From: an uncultured Rhodospirillaceae bacterium
Lineage (GTDB): Bacteria > Pseudomonadota > Alphaproteobacteria > UBA9219
NCBI GenBank assembly: GCA_964652235.1
Contig: CAZZDK010000002.1
Location: 38,675 to 102,674, forward strand
Length of the DNA: 64,000 nucleotides
Direction of reading: 5' to 3'
The stretch's first letter is position 1. Each line of letters starts with the position of its first letter. The notes below the pieces were generated by a model. It searched no databases, was not told where the DNA came from, and was given only the letters and a program-made list of their open reading frames with translations. Shown here in pieces: positions 2,826 to 46,364 of this stretch. The position numbers were made by a program, and so were the translations under genes.

Positions 2826-4051
2826 ACTCTTCAACGACGCATAGTCTTGCCAGCAAGATTGAGCTTTGGGATGTGGAAAGGCTTGTGCCTTATGCGAACA
2901 ATCCACGCACGCATTCGGAAACGCAGATTGCAAAGGTCGCGGCCAGCATCGCACGCTTCGGTTTTGTGAATCCCATCTTGGTGGACGCATCAGCCAATGT
3001 CATTGCAGGCCATGGGCGATTACAAGCGGCCAAGCAACTGGCTCTAAAGGAAGTGCCCGTCATTATCCTCGATCATTTGAACGAGGATGAGAAACGGGCT
3101 TACGTCATCGCCGACAATCAGTTGGCCCTTGAGGCCGGATGGGACGACGATCTGCTAAAAGCGGAACTGGGCGCGCTTGCGGAGGTAGATTTCGATTTAT
3201 CCGTCATCGGTTTTTCGGATAAAGAATTGGCAGAGCTTCTGGAAGGTCTGGAAGGCACAGAAGGCAACACGGACGATGATGCCGTGCCGGAAACGCCCAA
3301 CGATCCGAAAACAAAGCCCGGCGATATTTATGTCCTCGGCAATCACCGCTTGCTTTGCGGCGACAGCACGATTCTTGAAAACGTCGAGCGCGTCCTTGAC
3401 GGCGCGCTGGCCGATATGGTGTTCACGGATCCGCCCTACAACGTCGATTACGGCAATACTGCCAAGGACAAAATGCGCGGCAACAACCGCACGATTATGA
3501 ACGACAATCTTGGTGAAGGGTTTGAGGCGTTCCTTTACGATGCATGCGTCAATATGATCGCGGTCTGTAAAGGCGCGATCTATGTTTGCATGTCGTCCAG
3601 CGAATTGCACACGCTTCAAAAAGCCTTCATCGCAGCGGGCGGCAAATGGTCGACCTTCGTGATCTGGGCAAAGAACACTTTCACGTTGGGACGATCCGAC
3701 TACCAGCGTCAGTATGAGCCGATCCTCTACGGCTGGAAGCAAGGCACGGATCATTTCTGGTGCGGCGCGCGCGATCAAGGCGACGTGTGGTTCGTCAACA
3801 AGCCGACGAAGAACGATTTGCATCCGACCATGAAGCCCGTTGAACTTGTCGAACGCGCCGTCCGTAACAGCAGCAAGAGCCGTGACATCGTTCTGGATTG
3901 CTTCGGCGGCTCCGGCAGCACACTCATCGCTTGCGAGAAAACTGGCCGTCAAGCAAGGCTAATCGAATTGGATCCCAAATATTGCGACGTGATCGTTCAG
4001 CGATGGGAAGAGTTTACGGGCAAGAAGGCCGAGTTGGTCTCAGCGGATTAA
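2822..4051 (+). CDS. ParB-like nuclease domain fused to DNA N6-adenine/N4-cytosine methyltransferase (DPPY class)
   Basis: N-terminal ParB/Srx-like region (NPILVD...GHGR), catalytic DPPYNVDY motif, C-terminal FGGSGST motif; ATGA overlap with upstream MTase. Confidence 0.8.
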   Translation: MNSSTTHSLASKIELWDVERLVPYANNPRTHSETQIAKVAASIARFGFVNPILVDASANVIAGHGRLQAAKQLALKEVPVIILDHLNEDEKRAYVIADNQLALEAGWDDDLLKAELGALAEVDFDLSVIGFSDKELAELLEGLEGTEGNTDDDAVPETPNDPKTKPGDIYVLGNHRLLCGDSTILENVERVLDGALADMVFTDPPYNVDYGNTAKDKMRGNNRTIMNDNLGEGFEAFLYDACVNMIAVCKGAIYVCMSSSELHTLQKAFIAAGGKWSTFVIWAKNTFTLGRSDYQRQYEPILYGWKQGTDHFWCGARDQGDVWFVNKPTKNDLHPTMKPVELVERAVRNSSKSRDIVLDCFGGSGSTLIACEKTGRQARLIELDPKYCDVIVQRWEEFTGKKAELVSAD

Positions 4052-28109: not shown

Positions 28110-28772
28110 ATGACAAAACCAGAACCATCACGTGGCATTCGTAACAACAACCCCGGCAATATCCGGCTCACAGATACCAAATGGCAGGGATTGTCGACGG
28201 AGCAAAAGGACGGAGAATTCTTCGTCTTTCAAAGCCCGATTTATGGGATCCGCGCTCTGGCCCGCGTTTTGATTTCTTATCAGGTCAAGCATGGGCTTCG
28301 AACGATACGTCAAATCATAAGCCGTTGGGCTCCGGCCTCGGAGAACGACACCGAAGCCTATATTAAGCATGTTTGTGAATTGACAACACAAACTGATAGC
28401 GAAGTTCTGGATATGCACAAATACGCCGATCTGAAATCGCTTGTCGTCGCAATTATCGATCATGAGAACGGATGTCAGCCCTATGCGGAGGCTCAAATCG
28501 ACAAGGCTTTGGTTCTTGCTGGCGTTGAGCCTCCGGCCAAGAGTCTGCAACAAACGCGCACAGTCAAGGGCGGACAGGCCGCTACGGCGGCAACGGTAGG
28601 CCTTGGCGCGCTGCAGGCCGTTCAGGACGGACTGGCTCCCGCGAGGGACACGCTCCAAACTCTCGTTCCATATCTCGACATCGCCAAATGGCTACTTCTG
28701 GCCATTACGCTCATCGGTCTCGGCGTAATGATCTGGGCGCGGGTAGACGATCAGAGGAAAGGTCTACGCTAA
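28110..28772 (+). CDS. Putative endolysin/cell-wall hydrolase with C-terminal membrane anchor
   Basis: Position between putative holin and spanins; conserved GIRNNNPGNIR motif of a phage hydrolase-like family (not assigned with certainty); C-terminal TM IAKWLLLAITLIGLGVMIWA. Confidence 0.4.
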   Translation: MTKPEPSRGIRNNNPGNIRLTDTKWQGLSTEQKDGEFFVFQSPIYGIRALARVLISYQVKHGLRTIRQIISRWAPASENDTEAYIKHVCELTTQTDSEVLDMHKYADLKSLVVAIIDHENGCQPYAEAQIDKALVLAGVEPPAKSLQQTRTVKGGQAATAATVGLGALQAVQDGLAPARDTLQTLVPYLDIAKWLLLAITLIGLGVMIWARVDDQRKGLR

Positions 28773-29182: not shown

Positions 29183-29986
29183 CTATAATGATGCCAATTC
29201 AACAGAGAACTCCTTTGAAGCGCTACAGAAACGCCCCATAAGGCTTCTAAATCTTTCCAAACCATCCGTTGCATAAAAGGTGCTCTGACCCGCGTCTTTA
29301 GAAGTACTAATTAGCTTTTTATCAAGAAGCGCTTTTCTTGCGGTAATGGCAGTCATTTGCGCACTATCGACAAGGGAAACACCTATCGGCATTCTTTTCT
29401 GAATGTTTTTCGATAAAATTGGAAAGTGAGTGCATCCTAAAACCAACGTGTCATAGTCCTCTGTTTTAATTGAATTCAGGTATCGTTGTATTGCCGCGTC
29501 AGCAGCTTCTGTTTCATCCCACCCTTCTTCCGCTAGAGAAACGAGGACATTGCACCCCATGCCCTCGACATGCGCCGTCGGGAGAATTTCTTTAAGTGCA
29601 ACTTCATAGGCTTTGGAACGAATGGTGCCTTCTGTCGCCCAGACAACGATGCGCTTATTTCGGCTTTTCGCCGCTGCCGCCTGCGCACCCGGAGAAATGA
29701 CGCCGACACAAGGTAGGTCAGGCCAATAACGACGTATCGCTTTGAGGCCATGCGCAGTTGCAGTATTACAGGCCACCACAAGCATCTTAACATTTTTTTG
29801 CACGAGCATGTCTGCAATTTCTAGGCAGTACCGCTCAACGGTTTGGGGGGGCTTAGTGCCATACGGAACACGCGCCGTATCACCGACGTATATATAATTT
29901 TCACAAGGCATTAGATCGCGCATAGCGCTATAAACTGTCAAACCGCCAACACCAGAGTCAAAAACACCGATAGCTGCTTGTCCCAT
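29183..29986 (-). CDS. murI: Glutamate racemase
   Basis: N-terminal IGVFDSGVGGLTVY signature and CNTA catalytic Cys region; AT-rich gene. Confidence 0.75.
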   Translation of the reverse strand: MGQAAIGVFDSGVGGLTVYSAMRDLMPCENYIYVGDTARVPYGTKPPQTVERYCLEIADMLVQKNVKMLVVACNTATAHGLKAIRRYWPDLPCVGVISPGAQAAAAKSRNKRIVVWATEGTIRSKAYEVALKEILPTAHVEGMGCNVLVSLAEEGWDETEAADAAIQRYLNSIKTEDYDTLVLGCTHFPILSKNIQKRMPIGVSLVDSAQMTAITARKALLDKKLISTSKDAGQSTFYATDGLERFRSLMGRFCSASKEFSVELASL

Positions 29987-30049
29987 GTTATAGTTTCCTT
30001 GTGTAAAACCTTTGTTTTCAAAAGCCTATGTTTTTTGCTCTTAGCATCT

Positions 30050-30853
30050 TTATTGTATCGGAGATAAAGCATATCCATACTTTGCTTGGCTTGTTCTTCC
30101 GTTGTTTTTCATCCTACTTAGAGTGTATTCATGGAGCTGGTTTCCGATGTCAAAATGCCAAAACTCATTCCGATAATTTGTAAACCCAACTGCGGTCATT
30201 ACACTGTGTAATGTGCGACGGTTTACAAGGCGTGGATCATGAATACAAATCTCACGCGCAGCAAGTCGCTCCTCGAAGAATGCCGTGTGGCTAACAACTG
30301 ACATCTCATCAAAATGCGCGCCCATATTTAGTAAACGAGATGTTTTTTTATCTCTCAGAAGAACATCAACCGATCCACCTGTAATATGTGTCGGCCACGT
30401 GGCCGGATTTTCTGGGCTAAAAGAGTCCGGGTCCGATACATACTGGACGACTTCACGATACACTTGTTCGTTCCGAGCAAAAGGATTCTCTTGCCGTACC
30501 CTAGCCCAGAAAAAATCCCAAATCCCTTTCTGACACGTCAATGGCCTGTATCCATCGACAACAAACAATTCGATTCCGATTGAGGCCAAAACATAATCAA
30601 CCACGGCTAACCGCTCCGCAGCCTCTTTTCTAACCCATACGGAGGGCAGCGCTCCAGATATTGGCTTAAAGTACGGGGCATTTTCTCCATCTGTTCGGGC
30701 ATAGTAATTTTCGCTGGCAATGCCATAGGCCCCAACATCTACTAATGACTCAGAGAATTGCGGGTGGTTCAAATCTACAGACACCGTTCTATAATTTCCT
30801 GTGTCTTCACTATTTTCATAAATTGGAACCGCGCTTGAAATAAAGCCGTTCAT
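30050..30853 (-). CDS. D-alanyl-D-alanine dipeptidase, VanX/DdpX-like (peptidase M15D)
   Basis: VVDGYRPLTCQKGIWDFFW, zinc-ligand-like H/D segment THITGGSVDVLL, and EFWHFDIG resembling the VanX EWWH catalytic Glu/His motif. Confidence 0.6.
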   Translation of the reverse strand: MNGFISSAVPIYENSEDTGNYRTVSVDLNHPQFSESLVDVGAYGIASENYYARTDGENAPYFKPISGALPSVWVRKEAAERLAVVDYVLASIGIELFVVDGYRPLTCQKGIWDFFWARVRQENPFARNEQVYREVVQYVSDPDSFSPENPATWPTHITGGSVDVLLRDKKTSRLLNMGAHFDEMSVVSHTAFFEERLAAREICIHDPRLVNRRTLHSVMTAVGFTNYRNEFWHFDIGNQLHEYTLSRMKNNGRTSQAKYGYALSPIQ

Positions 30854-30873
30854 GTTATTCCTTTCTTGGATCG

Positions 30874-31542
30874 TTACAAATCTCTTCTAAAAACTTGCCT
30901 AATTTTATCCGTCAGATCTCTCATCGGGGCATGATTTTTAGAAAGGCTTGACCAGTTAATTTCAATCAAATTCCCAGAGAAAGAACGATCCACTTCATCA
31001 ATCGATGCCCAGTGATTTTCCCAATTCCAAGATAAGTGGCTGCTCGGATGATGACAGCGGAGACTCTTGATCTTGCCGTCCTGATAGCGAACCCCATTAA
31101 ATAGAATTAAGTGCCCCCCTTTCCCAATTGTCCTGCCGTCCTCATCCTTCTCTCCACCACGCAAGCCGACAGCGACAGAAACAATGCAAACGTTTCCATG
31201 ACTTATAATTTTAGCAATTGTATCTGCGCCAACATTCCGATGGCATTGGCCAGAAACGCCATATTTTGACAAGAGACGAAGCAACCCAGCGTGTATCCAG
31301 CCCTTATCGCAATAAGCCTTCTCTGCAAGACCTTCATTGAGAAGCTCCCACGTTGTTTTTCCGAAACTCTCTTGTTGCAGTTCCTTCACGCCGGACACAA
31401 GCATCTTTACACAAGCAATGCCGCAGGCACGGGGGGACCAATGTCTTGCTTCCTCTTCTGTTGGGCCGCGCTCTGAATCAACCTCAATGATCTGAGAGAA
31501 GAACGGAATCCCCTCAACTACATCTTCTTTACTATTCTGCAT
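30874..31542 (-). CDS. Papain-like/C39-like cysteine peptidase-fold protein
   Basis: Candidate catalytic Cys in SPRACGIACVKML and His in GGHLILFNG as in Peptidase_C39_2/BtrH-like folds; assignment tentative. Confidence 0.35.
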   Translation of the reverse strand: MQNSKEDVVEGIPFFSQIIEVDSERGPTEEEARHWSPRACGIACVKMLVSGVKELQQESFGKTTWELLNEGLAEKAYCDKGWIHAGLLRLLSKYGVSGQCHRNVGADTIAKIISHGNVCIVSVAVGLRGGEKDEDGRTIGKGGHLILFNGVRYQDGKIKSLRCHHPSSHLSWNWENHWASIDEVDRSFSGNLIEINWSSLSKNHAPMRDLTDKIRQVFRRDL

Positions 31543-32499
31543 TTATCCCCCGAGTTTTGCTGTGTGTAAGAGCCAATTAACAACGTGACTTTGTTCATAA
31601 CCGATGCTTTTGGCAGAAGGAACGGAAATGCCATAGTTCCTTCCAAGGCTCGGATATGAGTTAGCCTCAAGAAAATATAAGCCCTTCTCCGTTTGAAGAA
31701 AATCCACTCTTAAAAGCCCATTAAATCGAAGCATTTCGTATGCGGCTCGTGAAAAAGCCTCCAATGCGGTTTGTTCTTTGGGCGAAACGTTTGCTGGTAC
31801 CTCCATCTCAACAGAATGGGACGTTCTTTTTGCTTCTTCATCAAAAATCGCAAACCCATTCTGGAGTGTAATTGAAACTGGAGGCAGAACCGTTACCGCA
31901 ACGCCATCATTCTGCCGAATAATTGGAACGGAGATTTCAACGCCTTTAAGATATGGTTCAACCATAAAAGAACCGTATGTTTTTATAAGTTTGCTTGCCG
32001 ATGCTTCGGCTTCGGCCTCCTCACGAACAAACACAACATCCTGGCCGCCGCCGCCATTCGTTGGTTTGATGATATATCCGTCCTTGTGCTTTCGGCGCAT
32101 AAACGTCCACAAATCAGCAACGCTAGAACAAAGCGTATCAGGTATTGTCAAAATGCCCGATCCGGTCAGCATTTTCTTTGTCAGCATTTTATTTGCGGTC
32201 ATATATGATGAGAACTTACGCGGCCCTGAATAAGGAACGCCAAGCGTTTCAAGAGAATCTCGTAAATCAAACTCTCTGTCTGTTCCCCTGTAATAGGGAT
32301 CTAACAAAAGGGCTTTCCCAGCGTTATGCCGCAGGCGCCCCCAGTTATGGGGAGGAATTGCATATGCCGGAATAATCTCATTCGGTTGATTTTGTATTGT
32401 GAGACATTCAGAAACTTGTTGCGAGACCTCTTCAAGATCTTCTCTCTCAGTTTCTGATCCTGCGTAAATTATATATACTTTGCTCATAATTTTCCTCAC
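31543..32499 (-). CDS. D-alanine--D-alanine ligase family ATP-grasp enzyme (paralog 2)
   Basis: ATP-grasp motifs YIIKPTNGGGGQDVVFV, EPYLKGVEISVPII, RVDFLQTEKGLYFLEANSYP; Ddl-like N-terminus IIYAGSETERE. Confidence 0.6.
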   Translation of the reverse strand: MRKIMSKVYIIYAGSETEREDLEEVSQQVSECLTIQNQPNEIIPAYAIPPHNWGRLRHNAGKALLLDPYYRGTDREFDLRDSLETLGVPYSGPRKFSSYMTANKMLTKKMLTGSGILTIPDTLCSSVADLWTFMRRKHKDGYIIKPTNGGGGQDVVFVREEAEAEASASKLIKTYGSFMVEPYLKGVEISVPIIRQNDGVAVTVLPPVSITLQNGFAIFDEEAKRTSHSVEMEVPANVSPKEQTALEAFSRAAYEMLRFNGLLRVDFLQTEKGLYFLEANSYPSLGRNYGISVPSAKSIGYEQSHVVNWLLHTAKLGG

Positions 32500-33428
32500 A
32501 TGGGCAAGCGGATTTTCTTTAAAAGAAAGGCAACTAGTTCGTCGTAAGTACGCCCTGAAGCCTTCCAGATAGAGGCTAGGTTCCCTGCCTCAGAAAGACC
32601 GGGAACAGTATTTGCTTCAAGCAAATATGCTTGACCCTGCGCGTCAACAAGATAATCGAATCTAACGACTGCGTCACACCCCATAGCTCCATACATTTTA
32701 GCTGATGCCTCACGGACAGATTTTTCAGAATCAGCTGAAATCTCAGACGGCAGGATGTACCGACGTTTATTTTCATTATGTTTGATTTCGTAATCGTATA
32801 GAGCCCCGTCAAAACGCACCTCTAAGAGAGGAAGCGTTATATCGATCTCGGGTTCGCCCGTTATCGCACAGGTGACAAACGAACCATCGATAAACTCTTC
32901 GACGATATATGGTTCATATTTTCTATCACGACTATCAATTTTGTCTTCCAGTTCCTTCAAACTCGATACAATTTCGACCCCACGGCTTCCGCCTCCATAA
33001 ATAGGTTTAAGAATATACTTTTTGTTTTCTTCTGCAGAAAGGACGGGGAGATTCATGTGCGCCTTCGTTGCTTCGAGACGATTAAGAACCCCCGGCGTTA
33101 GAACATTTAATGAGTGCGCCAAGGCTTTAAAACGCAACTTGTCAAACCCAACAATATGAGCATAAGGACGGGAGAAGTTATAGGGAATACCATTTACTTC
33201 ACAAAATGAAGAAAGGGCACCATCCTCTCCATTTTTTCCATGCATGCTGTTAAAAACGACAGATTGCGGCGACGCCTTCAAATCGTGGTCTTTTAAAGGA
33301 AATTCAATCAATCGATTAGGAACCCCGCGTCTGTCTAGCGAGCGAGCGACTGTTGCTGCGGAAATGATAGACCCCTCACGTTCCCAGCTCTCTCCTCCAA
33401 AAACTACAAGTACTGTGCTATTCATCAT
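32496..33428 (-). CDS. ddl: D-alanine--D-alanine ligase family enzyme (paralog 1)
   Basis: VLVVFGGESWEREGSIISA, HGKNGEDGALSSFCEVNGIPY, RFDYLVDAQGQAYLLEANTVPGLSEAG - classic Ddl signatures; ATGA overlap with paralog 2. Confidence 0.75.
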   Translation of the reverse strand: MMNSTVLVVFGGESWEREGSIISAATVARSLDRRGVPNRLIEFPLKDHDLKASPQSVVFNSMHGKNGEDGALSSFCEVNGIPYNFSRPYAHIVGFDKLRFKALAHSLNVLTPGVLNRLEATKAHMNLPVLSAEENKKYILKPIYGGGSRGVEIVSSLKELEDKIDSRDRKYEPYIVEEFIDGSFVTCAITGEPEIDITLPLLEVRFDGALYDYEIKHNENKRRYILPSEISADSEKSVREASAKMYGAMGCDAVVRFDYLVDAQGQAYLLEANTVPGLSEAGNLASIWKASGRTYDELVAFLLKKIRLPM

Positions 33429-33531
33429 CTGTCTTCTCCTTTTTAGATATAGTTCACCCGTTCACTAATCTCGTGTTTCGAGAAAAGCGTTTTAGAAAAT
33501 TCTTAAATGCCCTATTGCCTTCAGAAGGCTA

Positions 33532-33738
33532 TTAAGGGCTTCGCTGAAGACAAAGCCTATTGTAACCGCCTTTTTTGTTTATTTCTTCAGCCTCCTGCCT
33601 CGTGAGAGGGGCTGGATCTGTGCAACAATAAATGCTCGGCGGGCAAATTGCTCCGCAGGCGATGCAATCCCCTTCAACCACAGCAACAATGTTTTGTACT
33701 GAACGCTTGATGTCTTCATTTTTATCTATTTTCGTCAT
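33532..33738 (-). CDS. Cys-rich small protein (68 aa)
   Basis: Motif EGDCIACGAICPPSIYCC (CxxCxxxCP...CC); between MurF-like and Ddl genes in the operon. Confidence 0.3.
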   Translation of the reverse strand: MTKIDKNEDIKRSVQNIVAVVEGDCIACGAICPPSIYCCTDPAPLTRQEAEEINKKGGYNRLCLQRSP

Positions 33739-33753
33739 TTTTCCTCCTTAAAA

Positions 33754-35226
33754 TTATAAACTCGGACACGTGGAACAATGAATGTATTTGCTGCAACTTA
33801 CTTTGTCGCAGGCACTTTTCTTTCCCTCCATAAACAAGGCAACGCGCTCAAGATGCGAAAAACGTGAGCCTTTAATGAAGATGCAGGTGTTAGCCGGAAT
33901 CTCCTTTCCGGCTAGAATCTGGACAGCTTCGCCCCACTTTTCTACAATCGATATTTTATCAAGAGAAAACTGCGACATCTTGGCCGCTTCTCGCCATGTT
34001 TCCCCTGTTTCTCCTACACAAATTATTGCCCCATCAATCTCGCGTGTGGCCTTCAATATTTGAACATATGAGTCCAAAATAAAGTCGCCTACCTCTCTCA
34101 AATCGCCGAGGACCAGAATTGCGTTTTCTCCCGTCTCTCGAATGAGATTGATCCCGTTCAAAACGGAAGCGACGCTTGCGTTATAGGTATCATCTATAAC
34201 CCGCCCAGAAGGGAACGAAGATATGCGCAGGCGGCTTTCAGCTTTCCCGTTTGTAAGGGCGCTTGCTATTGTTTTCGGGTCTATCCCAGCGGCGATTCCA
34301 ACAGACACAGAAGCAAGGCAAGCGTACATTGTACCTTGGTCGCTAGGTTCAACTGATATATTGACCTCGCCCTTGGGGGTTTGGATTGAGAGGTTCTGAC
34401 TGTTTGAAATGATCTCTTTCTTTTGCATCCTGACATCGGCAAGCTCACCTGTGCCGAACCACAAAACTTTCCGGTCCGCCCCTTCCAAAGCCCCCTTTAG
34501 CGAGGCCAAGCTCTGATCATCGGCATTAAGTACAGCAATCCCATTCGGACGCAACTTGTCCAATAGCTTGGCTTTTTCCTTTAGGATAACCTCTATAGAC
34601 CCAAATCTTCCAACATGGGCAAGGCCGATATTCGTTATCACGGCAATATCAGGCAAAATTGTTCCAGCAAGCCATTCCATTTCACCGGGCGTGTTGATGC
34701 CAACCTCAATGCAAGCAAACTTTGTATCTTCGTTGATATTCACCAAAGTCAGGGGAATACCGAATTCGTTGTTGAAACTCTTTTTGCTGAACACCGTCGG
34801 AGCGATTTCGGAAAAAGAGCTACCTATATGGTTCTTGGTTGTTGTTTTGCCGACACTTCCCGTTACGGCAACCGTTAACGGATTATAGTGCTCACGGATT
34901 GTGCGTGCGAGTGCATGTAAGCAAAGCAACGAATCTTGAACATGCATAATTCTAGGGTCTTCAAGTTCCAAGAAATCTTCATTAACTACAGCAAGCGCTG
35001 CTCCAGCATTAAGCGCCGCCGCAACATAGGCATGGCCGTCAAGATTCTTTCCTTTGACGGCAAAAAATACTTCACCTTCTCTTATAGAGCGTGAATCGAT
35101 GCTTACACCCAAGAAGTCTTGATCAAGCACAGCGCCAAAACTTTCAGTTTGCAGCTTTCCTAGGTAATCAGAAAACAGATTTTTCAATGTTAACATCGTC
35201 GTTCCTTGCTTTGTTTGTGTGGTCAT
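33754..35226 (-). CDS. Mur ligase, MurF-like (UDP-N-acetylmuramoyl-tripeptide--D-alanyl-D-alanine ligase family)
   Basis: N-terminal MurF signature DSRSIREGEVFFAVKGKNLDGHAYVAAALNAGAALAVV, P-loop TGSVGKTTTK; unusual Cys-rich C-terminal tail ACDKVSCSKYIHCSTCP. Confidence 0.7.
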   Translation of the reverse strand: MTTQTKQGTTMLTLKNLFSDYLGKLQTESFGAVLDQDFLGVSIDSRSIREGEVFFAVKGKNLDGHAYVAAALNAGAALAVVNEDFLELEDPRIMHVQDSLLCLHALARTIREHYNPLTVAVTGSVGKTTTKNHIGSSFSEIAPTVFSKKSFNNEFGIPLTLVNINEDTKFACIEVGINTPGEMEWLAGTILPDIAVITNIGLAHVGRFGSIEVILKEKAKLLDKLRPNGIAVLNADDQSLASLKGALEGADRKVLWFGTGELADVRMQKKEIISNSQNLSIQTPKGEVNISVEPSDQGTMYACLASVSVGIAAGIDPKTIASALTNGKAESRLRISSFPSGRVIDDTYNASVASVLNGINLIRETGENAILVLGDLREVGDFILDSYVQILKATREIDGAIICVGETGETWREAAKMSQFSLDKISIVEKWGEAVQILAGKEIPANTCIFIKGSRFSHLERVALFMEGKKSACDKVSCSKYIHCSTCPSL

Positions 35227-35323
35227 AGTCTTTTGTTGTAGACTCTATAACCTTAGTCCTATATTTGCCCATACCCTTCTTTAAGGCATAATGGCGGCTT
35301 TTTCTTGTTGCCGCAGCTGGCCT

Positions 35324-35878
35324 CTAATGTATTGAGTAAAGCCTATATTTTTCCTTTCCATATTGCGTTTCTTCATTGTGCTCTTCTTTAATTTCTTCTG
35401 ACATTAACGCCCTCTTCGCAGCTCGAATTATGCGAGCATAAAGCGACTGAGGCGGCCCGTTCTTTCCAAGAAAGCTCTTCATACTAACAAAACAAGGCGG
35501 GGCCTCTGGATGCAATGCGCTTGCTTGCTTTTCTGCAACCCGTCCAACATAAACTATTGTTTGTGCCGATATAAACGGACCTCCCTCTTGTGTGAGGATC
35601 GTGACTGGGGCCATCGGGCCGATACAAACTTTTGTTGTCTCCAAGACCTCGCGCCGCGCTGCGGCTTCTGCATCGTCGTCGCCCCACTCAACACGTCCGC
35701 CCGGCAGAGCAAAACGGTCTGCATTCTTAATCATCAGCACACGGTCCTGATCATCAAAAACTACGACCTTGACGTACTTTGGTTCGCTTTTGGACAACTT
35801 TCCGATCTGCGTCTTTCCGAACAGGGCATCAGCTGCCGTCTGTTGTTTAGCTTTAGGCATAACGCGCCCCCCGTTCAT
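35324..35878 (-). CDS. NUDIX hydrolase
   Basis: Nudix box GGRVEWGDDDAEAAARREVLETTKV. Confidence 0.6.
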   Translation of the reverse strand: MNGGRVMPKAKQQTAADALFGKTQIGKLSKSEPKYVKVVVFDDQDRVLMIKNADRFALPGGRVEWGDDDAEAAARREVLETTKVCIGPMAPVTILTQEGGPFISAQTIVYVGRVAEKQASALHPEAPPCFVSMKSFLGKNGPPQSLYARIIRAAKRALMSEEIKEEHNEETQYGKEKYRLYSIH

Positions 35879-36125
35879 GAGGATAACCCGTATCAGTTGT
35901 ACGACGATTAATCTCTAAAGCAGCCAAAGCATTAGCGAAGTGCCAGAGAGAAGCTATGTCCTGATGGGTAAAGCCTTTTGCGATCAGGTCTTGTTGTGAG
36001 CAGTCTCCCAACGCTAATGTCGTTTCGACAATTGCATCTGCCATGTGTGCGACTGGCTCAAACCTTTTATCTGTTTTGGTCGTGATCTGATCTACAATAA
36101 GACGATGGCGAACGGCCTTAGTCAT
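35853..36125 (-). CDS. Hypothetical protein
   Basis: ORF only; overlaps neighbours in operon. Confidence 0.3.
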   Translation of the reverse strand: MTKAVRHRLIVDQITTKTDKRFEPVAHMADAIVETTLALGDCSQQDLIAKGFTHQDIASLWHFANALAALEINRRTTDTGYPHERGARYA

Positions 36126-36501
36126 TATTTGCCTCCTTGGTTTCGGAGACAGAGACAGTCATGCGGGAAATCCAAGCATGAGAAAATACTAGGGTGCTTT
36201 CCGCTTGGCCGCTTTCGGCAGGAATAGAAACCATGGACTCCTGCTGGACAAACTGGATGCCATGTCGTTCAAAAGTTTTGACAAGCGTTTTGATCGTGTC
36301 TTCCTTGGGCGAATAAATTCCATGTTCGATATTTTTGATTGTTTCCGCCGATAACTTGGCTTCCTTGGCGAGATCGCTGCGCGACCAGTCAAGCATGCTG
36401 CGCGCTGCGCGCAATTGCGACGGGCCAATCGGGCAATCCTTGATTTGCGGCTGAAAAGTTTCATTTTTGAATATGGCTGCTTCCACTCGTGAGAGGCTCA
36501 T
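36118..36501 (-). CDS. XRE-family HTH transcriptional regulator
   Basis: HTH QLRAARSMLDWSRSDLAKEAKLSAETIKNIEHG; N-terminal region paralogous to 37477..38145 and 39013..39663. Confidence 0.5.
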   Translation of the reverse strand: MSLSRVEAAIFKNETFQPQIKDCPIGPSQLRAARSMLDWSRSDLAKEAKLSAETIKNIEHGIYSPKEDTIKTLVKTFERHGIQFVQQESMVSIPAESGQAESTLVFSHAWISRMTVSVSETKEANND

Positions 36502-36959
36502 TGGTAGCCTCCCGCTTTTCTGTCCTCGATTTCCTCATCAAGGTATTTCAGCACCAGATCAGCCAGCTGCTCGTTCGAAGCCTCCGCATAGAACAACCAT
36601 TGCTTCCGGCGCGTCTTACGCTGCTGGAGGCGATCATAAAATTGAATCAGAGTTTCCCGATCTTCGGGCAGCTGCGTTTCTTCGCGCTTTTGTAGTTCCT
36701 CAATGTGCATGTTGAGTGCTGCGTCAACCTTCGTTGCCCACTTGTCTTCGGCAAGGGCGAGGTCCTGTGCAGGAAATGTCTGTTTCAGGTGCAGATTGCA
36801 AAACTCGTCCATGAGTTTCGCAAGGGCGACAATTTTCTGAGTGGCTTCTTTCGATTTGGCGTTCTCGCCCTGTGAAATCATGCTCTGAAACGCCAGCATA
36901 AGGCAAAGGCGCGCGGGAAGATTATCATGCGTCATGGTTGCGTCCCCGCTTGTTATCAT
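36498..36959 (-). CDS. Hypothetical protein
   Basis: ORF only. Confidence 0.3.
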   Translation of the reverse strand: MITSGDATMTHDNLPARLCLMLAFQSMISQGENAKSKEATQKIVALAKLMDEFCNLHLKQTFPAQDLALAEDKWATKVDAALNMHIEELQKREETQLPEDRETLIQFYDRLQQRKTRRKQWLFYAEASNEQLADLVLKYLDEEIEDRKAGGYQ

Positions 36960-37254
36960 TCGACCACAGCCCGATTAGCACCTTGGCCAACCGTCCAAGG
37001 AGGTTCAGGTCTTCTTCGGATGGATCTGGCAGAGGCGTGTTGGCACAGCGAAGGAATGTTATGCCGTGGCTTGTTATCGTCTGCATAAACTCCGTGCGGG
37101 CTTCGTCGGAAGAAAAGTTATCCTGAATCACGACGCCAACGGTGGGATCTGGATACGCGGATGAGAGCGTTTCGACATTCTGTGTATCGTTCATGAGCAG
37201 AGCCGATGTCTTCATTGTGCGCTTCATAAGAACCCCGTTGATTGCGTCCAACAC
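36925..37254 (-). CDS. Hypothetical protein (first gene of long leftward operon)
   Basis: ORF only. Confidence 0.3.
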   Translation of the reverse strand: MLDAINGVLMKRTMKTSALLMNDTQNVETLSSAYPDPTVGVVIQDNFSSDEARTEFMQTITSHGITFLRCANTPLPDPSEEDLNLLGRLAKVLIGLWSNDNKRGRNHDA

Positions 37255-37417
37255 ATGAGTTCAAATGCCGTAATTCCGCGCACAGAAACCACAGCTATTT
37301 TTTCCGCTTTTCTCCCTATAACGGGGAGTTTTTAGGCAAATTCAGATGGGTTCCCGTTTTTCTGCCAGTTGCAGGGAGTTTTCCATCCAAGCCTCCCTTG
37401 ATAGGGGAGGCTTTTGA

Positions 37418-37449
37418 CAAAAAAATACGCGCCAATTTGCGATTGGCGC
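37418..37449 (-). terminator. Rho-independent terminator for gene 37477..38145
   Basis: Minus-strand hairpin GCGCCAAT-CGCAA-ATTGGCGC followed by TATTTTTTT; an adjacent second hairpin GCCTCCC-TTGATAG-GGGAGGC + TTTT (37391-37415) reads as a plus-strand terminator. Confidence 0.5.
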
Positions 37450-37476
37450 GTTAGGTCTTCGGGGGAAGAAATTGAT

Positions 37477-39012: not shown

Positions 39013-39663
39013 ATGAAGCTAACTGGTCTCCAAATCGCCGCCGCCATTACACTATCAGGGCTAACAAGAGAAGCCTTGGCAAACGAGGCGGGCGTTGGCC
39101 GCAACACGATAGATAGAATTATCAACGAAACCGCTGCGTGCCGCGAAGATACAATACGCAAAATCACAGACATTCTTGAAGTACGCGGCATTGAGTTTTT
39201 GCCAGGCGAAGGCGTTCGCAAAAAAGAGCAAACTGTTACAACGCTTACTGGAGACGACTGCCTTCAAGAGCTTCTGTTGGATGTATACCGGACTCTGCAA
39301 GATAGGGGCGGCGAAATGCTTATCGCGCATTTGGACGAAGGAAGCGCAGCAAGAAGCTTAAAAAAAGAATTCTTGGATGAACAAATTCGCAAACGCAAGG
39401 TGGCAAATATAACTTGCCGCTTGCTCGTTCGAGCAGATGATCCGAATCTTATTCCCCCTTATGACACCTATCGGGCAATACCTGACGAGTCATTCTCTCC
39501 ATATCCGTTTTACATTTATGGATCGAAGTTAGCCCTTTTGTCTTGGAAGCCGGAGCCGCGCGTAATCATAATTGACGATCAGCGTTTTGCCCATAGTGCT
39601 GCAAAGCTATTTGATATTGCATGGAACACAGGTAAAGAAATCATTCGAAACGAGAAGAAATGA
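39013..39663 (+). CDS. HTH regulator (paralog of 37477..38145)
   Basis: N-terminal HTH LTREALANEAGVGRNTIDRIINE; stop overlaps downstream start (ATGA). Confidence 0.5.
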   Translation: MKLTGLQIAAAITLSGLTREALANEAGVGRNTIDRIINETAACREDTIRKITDILEVRGIEFLPGEGVRKKEQTVTTLTGDDCLQELLLDVYRTLQDRGGEMLIAHLDEGSAARSLKKEFLDEQIRKRKVANITCRLLVRADDPNLIPPYDTYRAIPDESFSPYPFYIYGSKLALLSWKPEPRVIIIDDQRFAHSAAKLFDIAWNTGKEIIRNEKK

Positions 39664-40700
39664 CAATGTTTTCAGCTTATATGCATGAACTTGATTTTGA
39701 AGAATGGCTCGAACAAAGCCAATATGTCGAGCGCATTAATGATGCCAATATTTCTCGCCTTACAAGACTTTTAGCCTCGGAGATAGACGTCGACAGTTAT
39801 GCGGTTTCTCCCGCATATTATGCCTATACAGGAAGACGGGGGCTGTGGCTTTATCATTATGACGGAACCTTTCTTCCGATGTGCTGGCATCCCAACGTCG
39901 AGGGGCAGATGTTAGTTTTCCCGCCGCGTGGGCAGAAGAATTACGCTGCAGTCACAGCGTTACTAAACGAAGCTCCCTCACCGCCGCGAGGATTTCTTCT
40001 AGCGAGATTTAAACCTCAAGAGATAGGCCAGCTTAAAACGCTTTATGCCTTTGTTAGCCGCGTATCTTTCGAGCCCATTGAGGAAGAGGTTCTCGATTGG
40101 CGTTATCCAGCGAGGATTTTATCCACACTTAATACCACTCAAATGCTTGGGCATGAATATATGCTTATCCGAAACCGCGTCCGCCAAACGAAGAAATATA
40201 CGGTGGATACAGAACGCCTTTCGCTCAAACATATTCCAGAGATTGAGCGTCTCGCTTTGCGCTGGGCCAACAAGCAAGCCGAGAACCCTGAAGAACTTAT
40301 CGATCTAGTTACCCCCTATAAAGAAACTTTGCGTCTCTACAAACAGAGAGAACTTGGGCTTGATGGCTTGGTGTTTATTGTCGACGGCCAGATTCAGGCG
40401 ACAACAATATGGGACATCTCAAACCCTGAACACAAGATAGCCAATCTGTATATGAACCTGTGTAATGTTTCCTATCGAGGGTTGTCTGAATTTTCAATCA
40501 AAGCAACGGCAGCAATATTGTGTGAAAAGGGCGTTCCGCTTCTCAATCTTGGAGGATCTGAAACGGCCAGCCTAGATCATTATAAAAATAAATTTTCGCC
40601 AGCCATAAGCGTTCATCTTTGCTCACTAGAGGCTGGTGTAGCTATGATGCCGAATATTGCTGGCACACTCCCTGTTGAAAAGGAGCTTAGAGTAGCTTAA
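39660..40700 (+). CDS. Enzyme-like protein of unknown function (possible GNAT/Fem-like or DUF2156-like fold)
   Basis: 346 aa translationally coupled to HTH gene; weak resemblance to acyl/aminoacyl-transferase folds; not confirmed. Confidence 0.25.
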   Translation: MTMFSAYMHELDFEEWLEQSQYVERINDANISRLTRLLASEIDVDSYAVSPAYYAYTGRRGLWLYHYDGTFLPMCWHPNVEGQMLVFPPRGQKNYAAVTALLNEAPSPPRGFLLARFKPQEIGQLKTLYAFVSRVSFEPIEEEVLDWRYPARILSTLNTTQMLGHEYMLIRNRVRQTKKYTVDTERLSLKHIPEIERLALRWANKQAENPEELIDLVTPYKETLRLYKQRELGLDGLVFIVDGQIQATTIWDISNPEHKIANLYMNLCNVSYRGLSEFSIKATAAILCEKGVPLLNLGGSETASLDHYKNKFSPAISVHLCSLEAGVAMMPNIAGTLPVEKELRVA

Positions 40701-41149
40701 TGCCAAAATTAAAACGATCCCAGCTCAAAGTCGGCAACACTATCGAGCCGGACGGGTTTCCTCCGGGCCGGATAGTAACGATTGAGAAATGCACACTTGA
40801 GAGCTTCATCGATGGAAAGCGGAAAAAGCGGTGGCCTTGTTGGACGGTTCGCACCGACGCTCCGCGACCTCTGCACAAATACCTTATTTGCGATCTCGGC
40901 AAAATAGACGGCCTCATTCTCTGGAGAAAGTCAGAGATAAAGTTTGCGCCTAAAGACGCAAAATTATGGGTTGAACGCAGCGGACTTGAGGAAATGGAGA
41001 ATATTACCGGCAATGGGCCAGATAGTTTTATCTATTCAATGCTTGTTTACATTCTTGATCACAAGAGCAAACAGCCTAGCAAATTCTATCTTATAGAAAG
41101 AATGCGTGATGCCAGAATCTTCCGGTACGAAGGATTTCGTGTTGGATAA
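40700..41149 (+). CDS. Hypothetical protein
   Basis: ORF only; start overlaps upstream stop. Confidence 0.3.
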   Translation: MPKLKRSQLKVGNTIEPDGFPPGRIVTIEKCTLESFIDGKRKKRWPCWTVRTDAPRPLHKYLICDLGKIDGLILWRKSEIKFAPKDAKLWVERSGLEEMENITGNGPDSFIYSMLVYILDHKSKQPSKFYLIERMRDARIFRYEGFRVG

Positions 41150-41900: not shown

Positions 41901-42185
41901 TGTACCAGAAATGGGTGCCTTTCTTCAAAACTTGCATGGCCCACGGTCGTCCTAACATGAGTGCAGCATGAGAGCACTTTGGGAGCAAAGTATGGGTGCA
42001 AACCGATAACGATTTGAAAGTGAACGCAGAAAACCGAAGGGAAATGGAAAAAGCCTATACGGTTTTGCAAGGAAATGGCTAAAAATGGCGCGTTTGTGTC
42101 AGATAAAAACGAAAGTGGTTGCCATTGTCTGGGAATGCGCGTAAAAGGAGATTATCGTTCTAAATCAATGGGGTAATGCTTTTCC

Positions 42186-42230
42186 TTGGTAAGGACGGGG
42201 TCGTAGGTTCAATTCCTATCGGCAGCACCA
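42186..42230 (+). other. 3'-terminal fragment of a tRNA gene (T-arm GGTTCAATTCC + acceptor 3' strand + CCA); probable att-site remnant
   Basis: GTAGG-TTCAATT-CCTAT T-arm followed by CGGCAGC-A-CCA; no complementary 5' acceptor strand or D-arm upstream, so not an intact tRNA. Confidence 0.5.
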
Positions 42231-42402: not shown

Positions 42403-42681
42403 CTATCGGCTTGTTACTGCCCAAACAAGAGGTCCATCGCCTTTAGCCGCGTTGTTTTGCCAGTGCAGTGGTTGAAGGTTACTAATATGATCAGAACCGC
42501 CCAAATTTACAGGCCTTATATGATCAATTTCCCAACCAAACTCGCTTTCACGGTTTCCGTAGTCCGTCCTTTTAATCCATGCCCCGCAAATATCCTTGCG
42601 TAATCCTTGGATTTCCTTGTCCGGACCGACATAAGCCGCTTTCGCCCAAACTTGATTTACTTGTTCTTGAGTAAAGGCCAT
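42403..42681 (-). CDS. HNH endonuclease (92 aa)
   Basis: EIDHIRPVNLGGSDHISNLQPLHWQNN - HNH motif. Confidence 0.6.
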   Translation of the reverse strand: MAFTQEQVNQVWAKAAYVGPDKEIQGLRKDICGAWIKRTDYGNRESEFGWEIDHIRPVNLGGSDHISNLQPLHWQNNAAKGDGPLVWAVTSR

Positions 42682-45487: not shown

Positions 45488-45596
45488 CAAAAACTTCTCT
45501 TCCGTTTTAGAATCCTTTTGCCGGGGTATCCCTTTTTGGGATTGAGAACAGACCCGTTGAACCTGATCTGGCTCATACCAGCGAAGGGAGCTTTTC

Positions 45597-46364
45597 ATGC
45601 AAACGCATCCGCGTTTTTTCTGCGCGCCGCCCGCGCCGCGCCGCATCGTCGCCGGGTTTTCCTACTTGCAGCGTATCGGCAAAGGCGCGCAAACGCGCGT
45701 CTGGTTTCCGCCGTCTTTGCAGGAGGACGCGATCGAATGGGCCGCCGTGCGGCAATTCGAGCTTTTTCAGGAAGCGGACAATCTTGTCATCGACGCGCTG
45801 GAGGTCTCGGAAATCAAACGTTCGTTCCAGGCCTGGGCGAAAATGCGTTCAGGCGGCTATCGCGTGACGATTCTGACGCTGGGCGCCTACGCGCCGCGCG
45901 CGGCAGAGGACGATCTTTATATCCTCGACCTTAAAATGCAGGAGGAAATCACGCGGCTGATTCATTTCCTTTATCTGAGCGAGCAGAGCGGTGCCGCCTC
46001 TTCTTTCCAGGAAGCCGCGCTTGAAAAAAATGATTGGCAGATGGAATCGGCCCTGCCCCACGTGGCTGAAGCGCTTGCGGTTCGCTCGCTTTTCAAGCCG
46101 GAAAAACAGCGGCTCGCGGAAAAGACTTTTTTTGAGATTCTGAAACGTCTTCCGCAGGACCGGATTTTGCATGAAATCGCCTTCGGCCTTTCCTTGCCGG
46201 ACGCCTCGAAGGAGAAAAATTGGGTTTACGTCGCCGGGGAAGAGCATCGCGCGGCCTCGTTCTTCGGTTCCTTGGGCGAAGTCATGGGCGAGCGTATTCA
46301 CGCGCATATGCGCGGCCATTATGATCGCTCCCGCCATTCTTTCGCGGCGTTAAAAGCGGCCTAG
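45597..46364 (+). CDS. Hypothetical protein
   Basis: 255-aa ORF, host-like GC. Confidence 0.4.
   Translation: MQTHPRFFCAPPAPRRIVAGFSYLQRIGKGAQTRVWFPPSLQEDAIEWAAVRQFELFQEADNLVIDALEVSEIKRSFQAWAKMRSGGYRVTILTLGAYAPRAAEDDLYILDLKMQEEITRLIHFLYLSEQSGAASSFQEAALEKNDWQMESALPHVAEALAVRSLFKPEKQRLAEKTFFEILKRLPQDRILHEIAFGLSLPDASKEKNWVYVAGEEHRAASFFGSLGEVMGERIHAHMRGHYDRSRHSFAALKAA

Follow-up and report, generated by a model that had tools for sequence, protein, structure and literature searches.

The question raised by this locus is why genes for enzymes of peptidoglycan precursor synthesis stand directly beside the lysis genes of a prophage. The DNA is a 64,000-nucleotide stretch from an uncultured Rhodospirillaceae bacterium (assembly GCA_964652235.1, contig CAZZDK010000002.1, positions 38,675 to 102,674 of the forward strand), here called the window. 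Eight of its minus-strand open reading frames (ORFs), at 29183-35878, encode a MurI-type glutamate racemase, a VanX-type dipeptidase, a C39-fold peptidase, two Ddl-family ligases (DdlA and DdlB), a Cys-rich small protein, a MurF-type ligase, and a Nudix-fold protein. An earlier note on this DNA, made without database searches, had described these genes as a phage-borne operon that duplicates the D-Ala-D-Ala branch of precursor synthesis and may rewrite the end of the host stem peptide. All eight ORFs were found as described, and a gap of 12 bp separates the end of the final lysis-region ORF (29171) from the murI stop. The earlier interpretation is supported in part and can be sharpened. The genes make up a coherent cassette that moves horizontally, and not a chance cluster. 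Our verdict is that the cassette is an undescribed variant of precursor-terminus reprogramming with a signature Ddl and a C39-fold peptidase at its center, rare and conserved, which is found on phage-linked, island, and plasmid elements. As to what it does, the reading that we favor, and put forward tentatively as a candidate still short of probable, is that a mobile van-like module makes a non-canonical D-aminoacyl dipeptide, possibly with an acidic end, and loads it on UDP-N-acetylmuramic acid (UDP-MurNAc)-tripeptide while its peptidases remove the normal dipeptide.

The Ddl-family ligases

DdlA (32496-33428, minus strand) is a Ddl-family ligase of 310 amino acids that scores 115.9 against PF07478 (cutoff 24) and 55.5 against PF01820. 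DdlB (31543-32499, minus strand) is a highly divergent Ddl-family ATP-grasp ligase of 318 amino acids when read from a GTG codon, or of 314 when read from the ATG at 32487 that is called in the related contigs L008 and L009, and it scores 67.1 against PF07478 (cutoff 24). The Pfam model of the Ddl C-terminal domain is passed by both proteins, but the Ddl family model NF002378 (cutoff 243) is failed by both, with scores of 199.1 for DdlA and 111.8 for DdlB. No cutoff of a Van ligase model (VanA, VanC, VanG, and others) is reached by either ligase, the best score being 129.2 against the 495 required for VanG.

Residues were mapped by alignment and are numbered here as in Escherichia coli DdlB. 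The catalytic residues E15, K144, K215, R255, D257, E270, and N272 are retained in DdlA, in DdlB, and in their cassette homologues, so that the "classic Ddl motifs" read earlier from the translations hold for catalysis; they do not hold for the residues that set specificity. DdlA carries the substitutions S150G, Y216H, S281G, and L282N, all of which are invariant among its cassette homologues. DdlB carries H63Y, S150G, S151G, G153D, Y216R, and S281G, and has I at position 282. Ser150 and Tyr216 are reported to be conserved among ligases whose sole product is D-Ala-D-Ala, and mutating them gives depsipeptide activity (PMC7691350). Because both residues are replaced in both paralogues, neither looks like a strict D-Ala-D-Ala ligase, and the suggestion that they supply an alternative D-Ala-D-X is supported to that extent.

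The four positions 150, 216, 281, and 282 switch together. A full HMMER scan covered 1.84 billion representatives; of the 150 nearest proteins (cluster representatives), 28 have the combination G/[H,R]/G/N and about 115 have S/Y/S/[L,D]. The DdlA signature (G150, H or R216, G281, N282) is common to loci L003, L010, L007, and L016 and to Ddl proteins of Streptomyces plasmids. Positions 216 and 282 are what we take to be the equivalents of the specificity residues of VanC2 and VanG. In current annotation the ligases that carry this signature are filed as plain "D-alanine--D-alanine ligase."

The MurF-type ligase and its Cys-rich neighbor

The MurF-type ligase (33754-35226, minus strand) has 490 amino acids, or 480 when started at the ATG at 35196, as in its database entry P0001, and ends in a CX4CX5CX2C tail (referred to here as the Cys4 tail). 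It scores 314.6 against TIGR01143 (cutoff 288.6), matches all three Mur-ligase domains (PF01225, PF08245, and PF02875), and aligns over residues 41-462 with Acinetobacter baumannii MurF (4qdi; E 3.6e-53). The Mur-ligase invariants are all kept, namely the P-loop GKTT, DxYNA, and the SxDxR motif of the UDP-MurNAc-binding N-domain. By family and motifs this is a real MurF-type enzyme for which use of UDP-MurNAc-tripeptide is predicted, in keeping with the dedicated MurF that had been proposed.

It is not a housekeeping MurF in the usual sense. The proteobacterial equivalog models are failed by a wide margin (NF010693, the alphaproteobacterial model, 222.8 against 544; NF008041, 212.8 against 551), and at positions that are near-invariant in 112 ordinary MurF proteins it has H387Y, G391L, G296D, and H298G, with H387 and G391 lying in the C-domain. 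Nine clusters make up its clade, with identities of 44-100%, and ordinary MurF proteins follow at no more than 37%. The Cys4 tail is invariant across the clade and absent from housekeeping MurF proteins. The statement that the operon duplicates the D-Ala-D-Ala branch is therefore misleading, given this identity of at most 37% to housekeeping MurF and the position of both Ddl proteins under their family cutoffs. Judged by sequence, the cassette enzymes are deep-branching specialized paralogues rather than ordinary housekeeping copies, and the cassette most likely alters or shields this step of precursor synthesis instead of merely copying it. One Cys4-tailed member of the clade (L001 10001-11461; CP064970.1) lies at native guanine-plus-cytosine (GC) content directly downstream of ispE, without cassette partners, in a complete 2.06-Mb alphaproteobacterial metagenome-assembled genome (MAG), and it may be the source of the mobile MurF.

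The gene for the small protein (33532-33738, minus strand, 68 amino acids) follows directly 3' of the MurF-like gene in all five loci where both were seen. What had been called a Cys-rich peptide turns out to be a conserved, orphan protein family: there are 25 invariant positions in six homologues, the core reads GDCIxCGxLCx4YxC, and nine of 5.8 billion clusters match. There are no Pfam or NCBIfam matches to the protein, and its AlphaFold2 model (pLDDT 59.6) is too poor for a fold search. In most homologues KKGG is invariant and leads into a short variable tail containing Cys; distant members are without the GG tail and retain the Cys core. A role as a LysW-like carrier was considered and set aside, the C-terminal tail being variable and the GG motif not universal. 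Perhaps the Cys4 tail and the Cys-rich mini-protein together bind a metal and in this way regulate the MurF-like ligase or serve it as a scaffold.

Racemase, peptidases, and Nudix-fold protein

MurI (29183-29986, minus strand, 267 amino acids) is encoded by the last gene of the operon. It scores 245.8 against TIGR00067 (cutoff 146.65), and both catalytic Cys motifs (VVACNTA and LGCTHF) are seen in its translation. The next gene (30050-30853, minus strand) encodes an M15D dipeptidase of the VanX/DdpX type, of 267 amino acids with N- and C-terminal extensions, which scores 76.1 against PF01427 (cutoff 27) and only 57.1 against the VanX equivalog (cutoff 320). In an alignment to 1r44 the VanX residues R71, H116, D123, E181, and H184 are all conserved. 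The enzyme looks active from these residues, which agrees with the proposed depletion of the normal dipeptide pool. Profile searches bear out the earlier family assignments of MurI, the M15 protein, MurF, the two Ddl ATP-grasp ligases, and the Nudix protein, all of which pass TIGR or Pfam cutoffs.

The cytoplasmic C39-fold cysteine peptidase (30874-31542, minus strand, 222 amino acids) falls below the Pfam gathering score (PF13529, 20.4 against 24). The papain-like C39 fold with its Cys/His catalytic pair is nevertheless recognizable, and a Paenibacillus homologue that is 37% identical passes the same model (36.2), so that the papain-like label stands for fold and catalytic pair but not at the family threshold. 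The fold lies near phytochelatin-synthase-like and BtrH-like transferases. No ATP-binding cassette (ABC) exporter partner was found for it in the low-GC block that surrounds the cassette, and the protein is standalone.

The Nudix-fold protein (35324-35878, minus strand) has 184 amino acids (178 in database calls) and a conserved C-terminal extension, and it scores 45.1 against PF00293 (cutoff 21.1). Its Nudix box is degenerate, reading RREVLETTKV (REVLET with shifted spacing) where GX5EX7REUXEEXGU is expected, and that of the L003 homologue (RREANDQ) has degenerated further. Nudix action on the UDP-linked precursor, which had been suggested, is accordingly doubtful. The C-terminal 55 amino acids are homologous to a 107-amino-acid ORF upstream of MurF in L004.

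Conservation, rarity, and mobility

The cassette families are rare, each comprising 9-14 clusters; the C39-like protein, for example, has relatives in 14 of 5.8 billion clusters. The gene order is conserved. In L003 the order (Nudix-like)-MurF-small protein-DdlA-DdlB-C39-M15 is retained beside genes for a DUF927 primase-like protein and an integrase, and in L010 a small protein-DdlA-DdlB-C39 block abuts the chromosomal genes bamD, recN, and ligA. The proteins of these two copies are 46-64% identical to those of the window. The order also recurs in L008/L009, and a variant with the order YbaK-like-Ddl-C39-MurF-small protein-M15 lies near an integrase. Cassettes have a GC content of 44.6-45.7% in unrelated hosts of 54-58%. 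The recurring order supports a coherent cassette, and a MurI::MurF fusion in the relative P0009 and the parallel in Streptomyces that is described below also support the earlier interpretation. The variant cassette of L006 (890-1366) and that of a contig of ERZ1426615 open with a gene for a YbaK/tRNA_edit-like deacylase, which might keep an unusual amino-acid pool from harming translation.

Whether the cassette is phage-borne, as had been claimed, is likely but not proven. The best evidence, drawn from sequence comparison, that it travels with phages comes from the metagenomic contig L008, which has the same arrangement and is mosaic with respect to the window (20874-41541 compared). The tail genes of the two are 86.9% identical, whereas the lysis genes, the cassette, and the cargo are 99.5-99.8% identical, so the lysis-plus-cargo block has been shared recently between diverged phages; the genes upstream of the Nudix gene (35879-37460) are only 96.3% identical. 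On the other side, no carrier turned up among the phages of INPHARED or the contigs of IMG/VR, and elsewhere the cassette lies in integrase islands or chromosomes. The cassette DNA had no match among INPHARED phages, the C39 and MurF-clade profiles had no relative in IMG/VR, and the C39 protein had no match among phages. In the phage collection MurF matched only bacterial-type murF genes, with identities of 26-34%, and the records concerned were bacterial, very large, or short and unannotated; among the matches listed for the MurF-clade profile in the JGI metagenomes there were only ordinary MurF proteins, at no more than 38% identity. Literature searches found no published description of the cassette or of modules combining C39, Ddl, and MurF.

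Parallel modules in other genomes

A tblastn search of plasmids found a similar module on three Streptomyces plasmids (NZ_CP122459.1, NZ_CP108493.1, and NZ_CP108559.1; loci L107-L109), where genes for a Ddl, a "threonine/serine dehydratase," a C39 family peptidase, and MurF occur together. A MurC-like ligase is present in two of the three modules and is not annotated near the module in NZ_CP108493.1. The "dehydratase" is a fold-type-II pyridoxal phosphate (PLP) enzyme of the racemase/dehydratase family, related to hydroxy-aspartate lyases and to the Ser-Asp-racemase family. The module proteins are 26-32% identical to those of the window. Their Ddl has the signature G150, R216, G281, N282, and their MurF, in which the Cys4 tail is missing, has the C-domain residues of housekeeping enzymes. 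The genes are annotated by family only, and no paper on them was found. One of the plasmids encodes a phage portal protein, and a zeta toxin gene is nearby on another.

The C39 subfamily as a whole is present on 48 PLSDB plasmids, among which 15 come from Streptomyces and 17 from Agrobacterium. On pAt of strain Ach5 and on a Rhizobium rhizogenes plasmid the peptidase is paired with a canonical-type Ddl, and in R. rhizogenes the pair occurs with a drug/metabolite transporter (DMT). The unit on A. tumefaciens Ach5 pAt (L110, 109295-118281) has the order GntR-C39 peptidase-Ddl and lies a few kilobases from genes for the penicillin-binding proteins PBP1A and PBP2 and an AbiEii-family toxin. A Brucella anthropi C39 homologue adjoins a dipeptidase and a peptide ABC importer. 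Matches to MurF on Rhizobium and Agrobacterium "plasmids" were set aside; the record examined (Rhizobium leguminosarum pSK03) holds an ordinary dcw cluster.

Base composition and transcription unit

The GC content of the 29-36 kb region is 43-47%, against 54-60% for the phage and host DNA of the window. The AT-rich island noted earlier is thus real, but the low-GC block (GC no more than 50%) does not end at 35.9 kb and extends to about 43.6 kb. The gene junctions had been described as overlapping or abutting; this is true of DdlA/DdlB and DdlB/C39, and the other junctions are 15-103 bp apart.

The operon is probably longer than the eight genes first recognized. A terminator-like hairpin (37427-37451, minus strand; 10-bp stem with six G-C pairs and a T-run) ends an upstream helix-turn-helix (HTH) gene and is likely the upstream limit of the cassette transcription unit. 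Because this strong hairpin is followed by four more overlapping minus-strand ORFs before the Nudix gene is reached, the unit probably covers 37254-29183 and 12 genes. Downstream of the hairpin, two overlapping ORFs of 153 and 109 amino acids (36498-36959 and 36925-37254, minus strand) are the probable first operon genes. They are followed by the gene for a 127-amino-acid HTH regulator of the XRE family (36118-36501, minus strand; PF01381 31.9, PF12844 32.0), a probable operon member that is co-linear in L008/L009, and by an ORF of 90 amino acids (35853-36125, minus strand) that overlaps its neighbors, is gene-called in L008/L009, and is likewise a probable member. Family searches found no match for the 90-, 153-, and 109-amino-acid ORFs (35853-37254). 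No signal peptide or membrane segment is present in any of the 12 operon proteins, so that the system acts in the cytoplasm, on precursors located there.

Proposed function and alternatives

Under the favored reading, a dedicated racemase (MurI) would enlarge the supply of some D-amino acid that is not D-Ala, and DdlA, in which both substrate subsites are remodeled, would make a non-canonical D-aminoacyl dipeptide together with DdlB. The C-terminal residue of that dipeptide would probably be polar or acidic, with D-Glu as the best guess. The MurF-type ligase would join the new dipeptide to UDP-MurNAc-tripeptide, and the VanX-type dipeptidase would destroy ordinary D-Ala-D-Ala. The C39-fold peptidase might edit or recycle substrates of the stem-peptide type, possibly as a functional analogue of VanY/VanXY, and the XRE regulator would control the operon. 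The lysogen could benefit through insensitivity to agents that recognize or need the D-Ala-D-Ala terminus, or through superinfection exclusion. The enzyme families and residues in this scheme are as observed; we infer the products and the flow between the enzymes. An acidic or polar D-residue is suggested by the basic or polar character of the His/Arg and Asn that have entered the second subsite and by the partners, which are MurI here and a Ser-Asp-racemase-family enzyme in Streptomyces. That the racemase-type partner comes from two different enzyme families argues that an unusual D-residue is being supplied, the part that VanT plays in VanC/G clusters.

Several observations weigh against this reading. 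Neither ligase attains the cutoff of any VanA/C/G model, and glycopeptide-type resistance has no obvious use in a Gram-negative host. MurI is absent from the cassette versions of L003 and L006, and the prediction of an acidic or polar residue comes solely from the substituted residues and the racemase partners. Two Cys4-tailed members of the MurF clade stand alone, one of them (L001) at native GC content, and the clade may therefore include ordinary MurF activity. On the metagenome contigs L114/L115 (66% GC) a signature Ddl (P0171) and a C39 peptidase occur without MurF beside two ATP-grasp enzymes of the L-amino-acid-ligase (LAL) type and a major facilitator superfamily (MFS) pump, in a cluster that resembles a small pathway for a peptide antibiotic, or the self-resistance genes of one. 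In L025 (Granulosicoccaceae) a Ddl-C39 pair is found with an ATP-grasp_4 enzyme and an L-Ala-D/L-Glu-epimerase-like enzyme. Because of these two contexts, the Ddl and C39 pair may make or detoxify a free peptide.

The contexts without MurF keep two alternatives alive. One is a target bypass, which we regard as rather unlikely: an inhibitor-insensitive Ddl and MurF, with detoxifying peptidases, would keep ordinary D-Ala-D-Ala-pentapeptide synthesis going under a natural antimetabolite of this branch, for instance a compound like D-cycloserine or a toxic analogue of the dipeptide. Mobile ddl cassettes in integrons do confer D-cycloserine resistance (PMC7691350), the remodeled ligase pocket could exclude an inhibitor, mobile elements spread the cassette among soil-type bacteria, and the signature Ddl in the antibiotic-like cluster with the two LAL-type ligases and the MFS pump could serve for producer self-resistance. 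If D-Ala-D-Ala were the product, however, a VanX-type enzyme that cleaves it and whose catalytic residues are intact would be counterproductive; dedicated racemases for amino acids other than alanine (MurI here, the PLP enzyme in Streptomyces) would be superfluous; and the integron Ddl proteins that give D-cycloserine resistance keep Ser150 and Tyr216, unlike DdlA and DdlB (PMC7691350). The second alternative, already raised in the earlier note and also improbable in our estimation, is that the enzymes assemble a free or nucleotide-linked D-amino-acid peptide (a toxin, a signal, or a nutrient derivative), with the MurF-type ligase using a non-peptidoglycan acceptor or making a UDP-MurNAc-peptide analogue. 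It draws on the pairing of Ddl and C39 with LAL-type ligases and an MFS pump, with ATP-grasp_4 and epimerase-like enzymes, and with the DMT transporter of the R. rhizogenes plasmid, on the dipeptidase and peptide importer beside the B. anthropi homologue, and on the nearness of the C39 fold to phytochelatin-synthase-like and BtrH-like transferases. Against it, the window operon has no transporter, the MurF-like ligase retains the N-domain motifs for UDP-MurNAc binding along with the complete architecture of a MurF, and a VanX-type enzyme suits pool editing more than biosynthesis. The four-residue Ddl switch would be a clean, testable specificity marker even under the bypass or the metabolite explanation.

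The remaining alternatives are less probable. It is quite unlikely that the operon is an anti-phage or exclusion module that poisons or alters precursor supply on superinfection (abortive infection), or whose wall change defeats phage lysins or competitor toxins. Its position in a prophage accessory region by the lysis genes, among HTH-regulated cargo, fits such a role, as do the L003 copy beside an integrase and a DUF927 primase-like protein and the lysis and cargo block, in which two phages with 87% identity in their tail genes reach 99.5-99.8%. However, no PADLOC-DB 2.0 model matches any of the eight proteins (E no higher than 0.01), a typical defense-system sensor or effector is absent, and the module is found also on large Streptomyces plasmids and in chromosomes. 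This explanation concerns the benefit and not the chemistry, and it is compatible with the favored reading. Ordinary extra copies, that is, a relocated or duplicated housekeeping D-Ala-D-Ala branch that makes normal precursors for gene dosage or as metabolic support for phage or host, are very unlikely. The family assignments (MurI, Ddl, MurF, and DdpX-like) and the Cys4-tailed MurF relative at native GC content beside ispE in a complete alphaproteobacterial MAG would be expected of such copies, but not a GC content of 43-47% between flanks of 54-60%, a place in a mobile block, a MurF score of 222.8 where the alphaproteobacterial cutoff is 544, identity of at most 37% to any ordinary MurF, two ligases under the Ddl cutoffs with Ser150 and Tyr216 lost, or the co-inheritance of a conserved peptidase, a dipeptidase, and a Cys protein with the ligases. 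Least probable is a system like those that make ribosomally synthesized and post-translationally modified peptides (RiPPs), in which the C39-type peptidase would cleave the Cys-rich protein as a precursor after KKGG and the ligases would modify it. The invariant KKGG and the short variable Cys-containing tail of most homologues are what suggest it. Leaders of the GG type have hydrophobic residues in a -4/-7/-12 pattern, but the hydrophobic register read before the GG does not match it; distant members of the family have the Cys core without the GG tail, C39 homologues accompany Ddl in many loci that lack the small protein, and an ABC exporter is absent.

To return to precursor-terminus reprogramming, a wider and more doubtful proposal is that these genes belong to an unrecognized mobile class of precursor editing, in which a core of a four-residue-switch Ddl and a cytoplasmic C39 peptidase is variably joined to MurF and a racemase. 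Here the stem peptide of a Gram-negative host would be made to end in a non-canonical D-residue, probably an acidic one, the prophage would alter recognition of the wall precursor by antibiotics, toxins, lysins, or host immunity, and the metal-binding MurF tail and the mini-protein would be a new regulatory layer. If the reprogramming reading is true, phages, islands, and plasmids in Proteobacteria and Actinobacteria would be further carriers of a process so far known mainly from Gram-positive glycopeptide resistance, and they would use different enzymes for it. There would be new Ddl and MurF specificities to characterize, a possible metal-dependent control of a Mur ligase, a first function for the cytoplasmic peptidase of C39 fold that accompanies Ddl on 48 PLSDB plasmids, and a concrete and testable lysogenic-conversion phenotype.

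Prophage setting and neighboring genes

A siphovirus-type prophage module occupies 6.5-29.2 kb and has genes for the large terminase, portal, protease, major head protein, tape measure, tail proteins like those of gene transfer agents (GTA) and phiJL001, and an endolysin. The endolysin gene (28110-28772, plus strand; PHROG 873, E 5.8e-63) is followed by two overlapping small lysis-region ORFs on the plus strand, which extend up to 29171 and are convergent with the cassette. The left end of the prophage falls outside the window. Two phage DNA methyltransferase genes lie at 1672-4051 (plus strand), the second of which encodes a ParB-like/methyltransferase fusion (PHROG 498, E 3.6e-166).

On the other side of the cassette, the same low-GC block holds a second cargo module (39013-41149, plus strand) whose starts and stops overlap. 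It consists of an XRE-HTH gene, a gene for an LPG_synthase_C/DUF2156-like protein, and an ORF of 149 amino acids. The LPG_synthase_C/DUF2156-like protein is soluble, with an MprF-type aminoacyl-transferase fold (Pfam 33.2 bits). Further HTH genes are present in the block. At 42110-42230 (plus strand) there is a fragment like the 3' part of a tRNA or transfer-messenger RNA (tmRNA), single-copy in the window and without a 5' half, which has a CCA end (...GGTTCAATTCCTATCGGCAGCACCA) and matches a tmRNA 3' end weakly (9.6 bits, E 0.1). There is no intact tRNA or tmRNA within the 64-kb window, and searches of the window for direct repeats and attachment (att) sites gave nothing convincing. The fragment may be what remains of an att site at the right end of the integrated element, which would put the cassette inside the element. 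Low-GC DNA continues past it to about 43.6 kb and includes an HNH-like ORF (42403-42681), which suggests a tandem or decayed second element beyond 42230. Just beyond the low-GC block, a thiamine pyrophosphate (TPP) riboswitch (45512-45606, plus strand; 70.3 bits) lies upstream of a host ORF of 255 amino acids.

Comparison with known systems

A close parallel among van systems is the VanC/VanE/VanG type of glycopeptide resistance operon (a D-Ala-D-Ser ligase with VanT and VanXY), with which the cassette shares a specialized Ddl-family ligase, a dedicated racemase that would provide the replacement D-residue, an M15-family enzyme predicted to remove D-Ala-D-Ala, and mobile carriage. Van loci sometimes have extra murF or ddl genes and sometimes adjoin prophage regions (PMC9689679). 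The cassette differs from the VanC/E/G type in that its ligases are two and not one and fall under every Van model cutoff (best 129 against 495), its racemase is of the MurI type and not VanT, and an XRE regulator is present in place of VanRS. It differs further in its dedicated Cys4-tailed MurF with a partner mini-protein, in its cytoplasmic C39-fold peptidase, and in its Gram-negative-like host. To our knowledge, the pocket change G150, H or R216, G281, N282 also differs from those of D-Ser and D-Lac ligases. VanH, VanT, and VanRS were found neither among the 12 operon genes nor in the 29-44 kb block, and the earlier statement that the arrangement is unlike described van clusters holds, with VanH and VanRS missing and the Van ligase models unmatched.

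The VanHAX plus murF2 arrangement of glycopeptide-producing actinomycetes resembles the cassette in having a second, dedicated MurF with an alternative Ddl-family ligase and VanX. The cassette differs from it in having no VanH and a DdlB-like rather than VanA-like ligase, and in adding a C39 peptidase, MurI, and the Cys-rich protein. The Streptomyces plasmid modules share with the cassette the triad of Ddl, C39-fold peptidase, and MurF, a racemase-type partner, the Ddl signature, and mobile carriage; unlike the cassette, they have no M15 dipeptidase, second Ddl, or small Cys protein, their MurF is without the Cys4 tail, and they have the extra MurC-like ligase. The integron cassettes ddl6 and ddl7 are likewise mobile Ddl genes that alter the D-Ala-D-Ala step, but they are single genes that keep Ser150 and Tyr216 and whose enzymes make only D-Ala-D-Ala, whereas the cassette is a multi-enzyme operon in which these residues are changed (PMC7691350).

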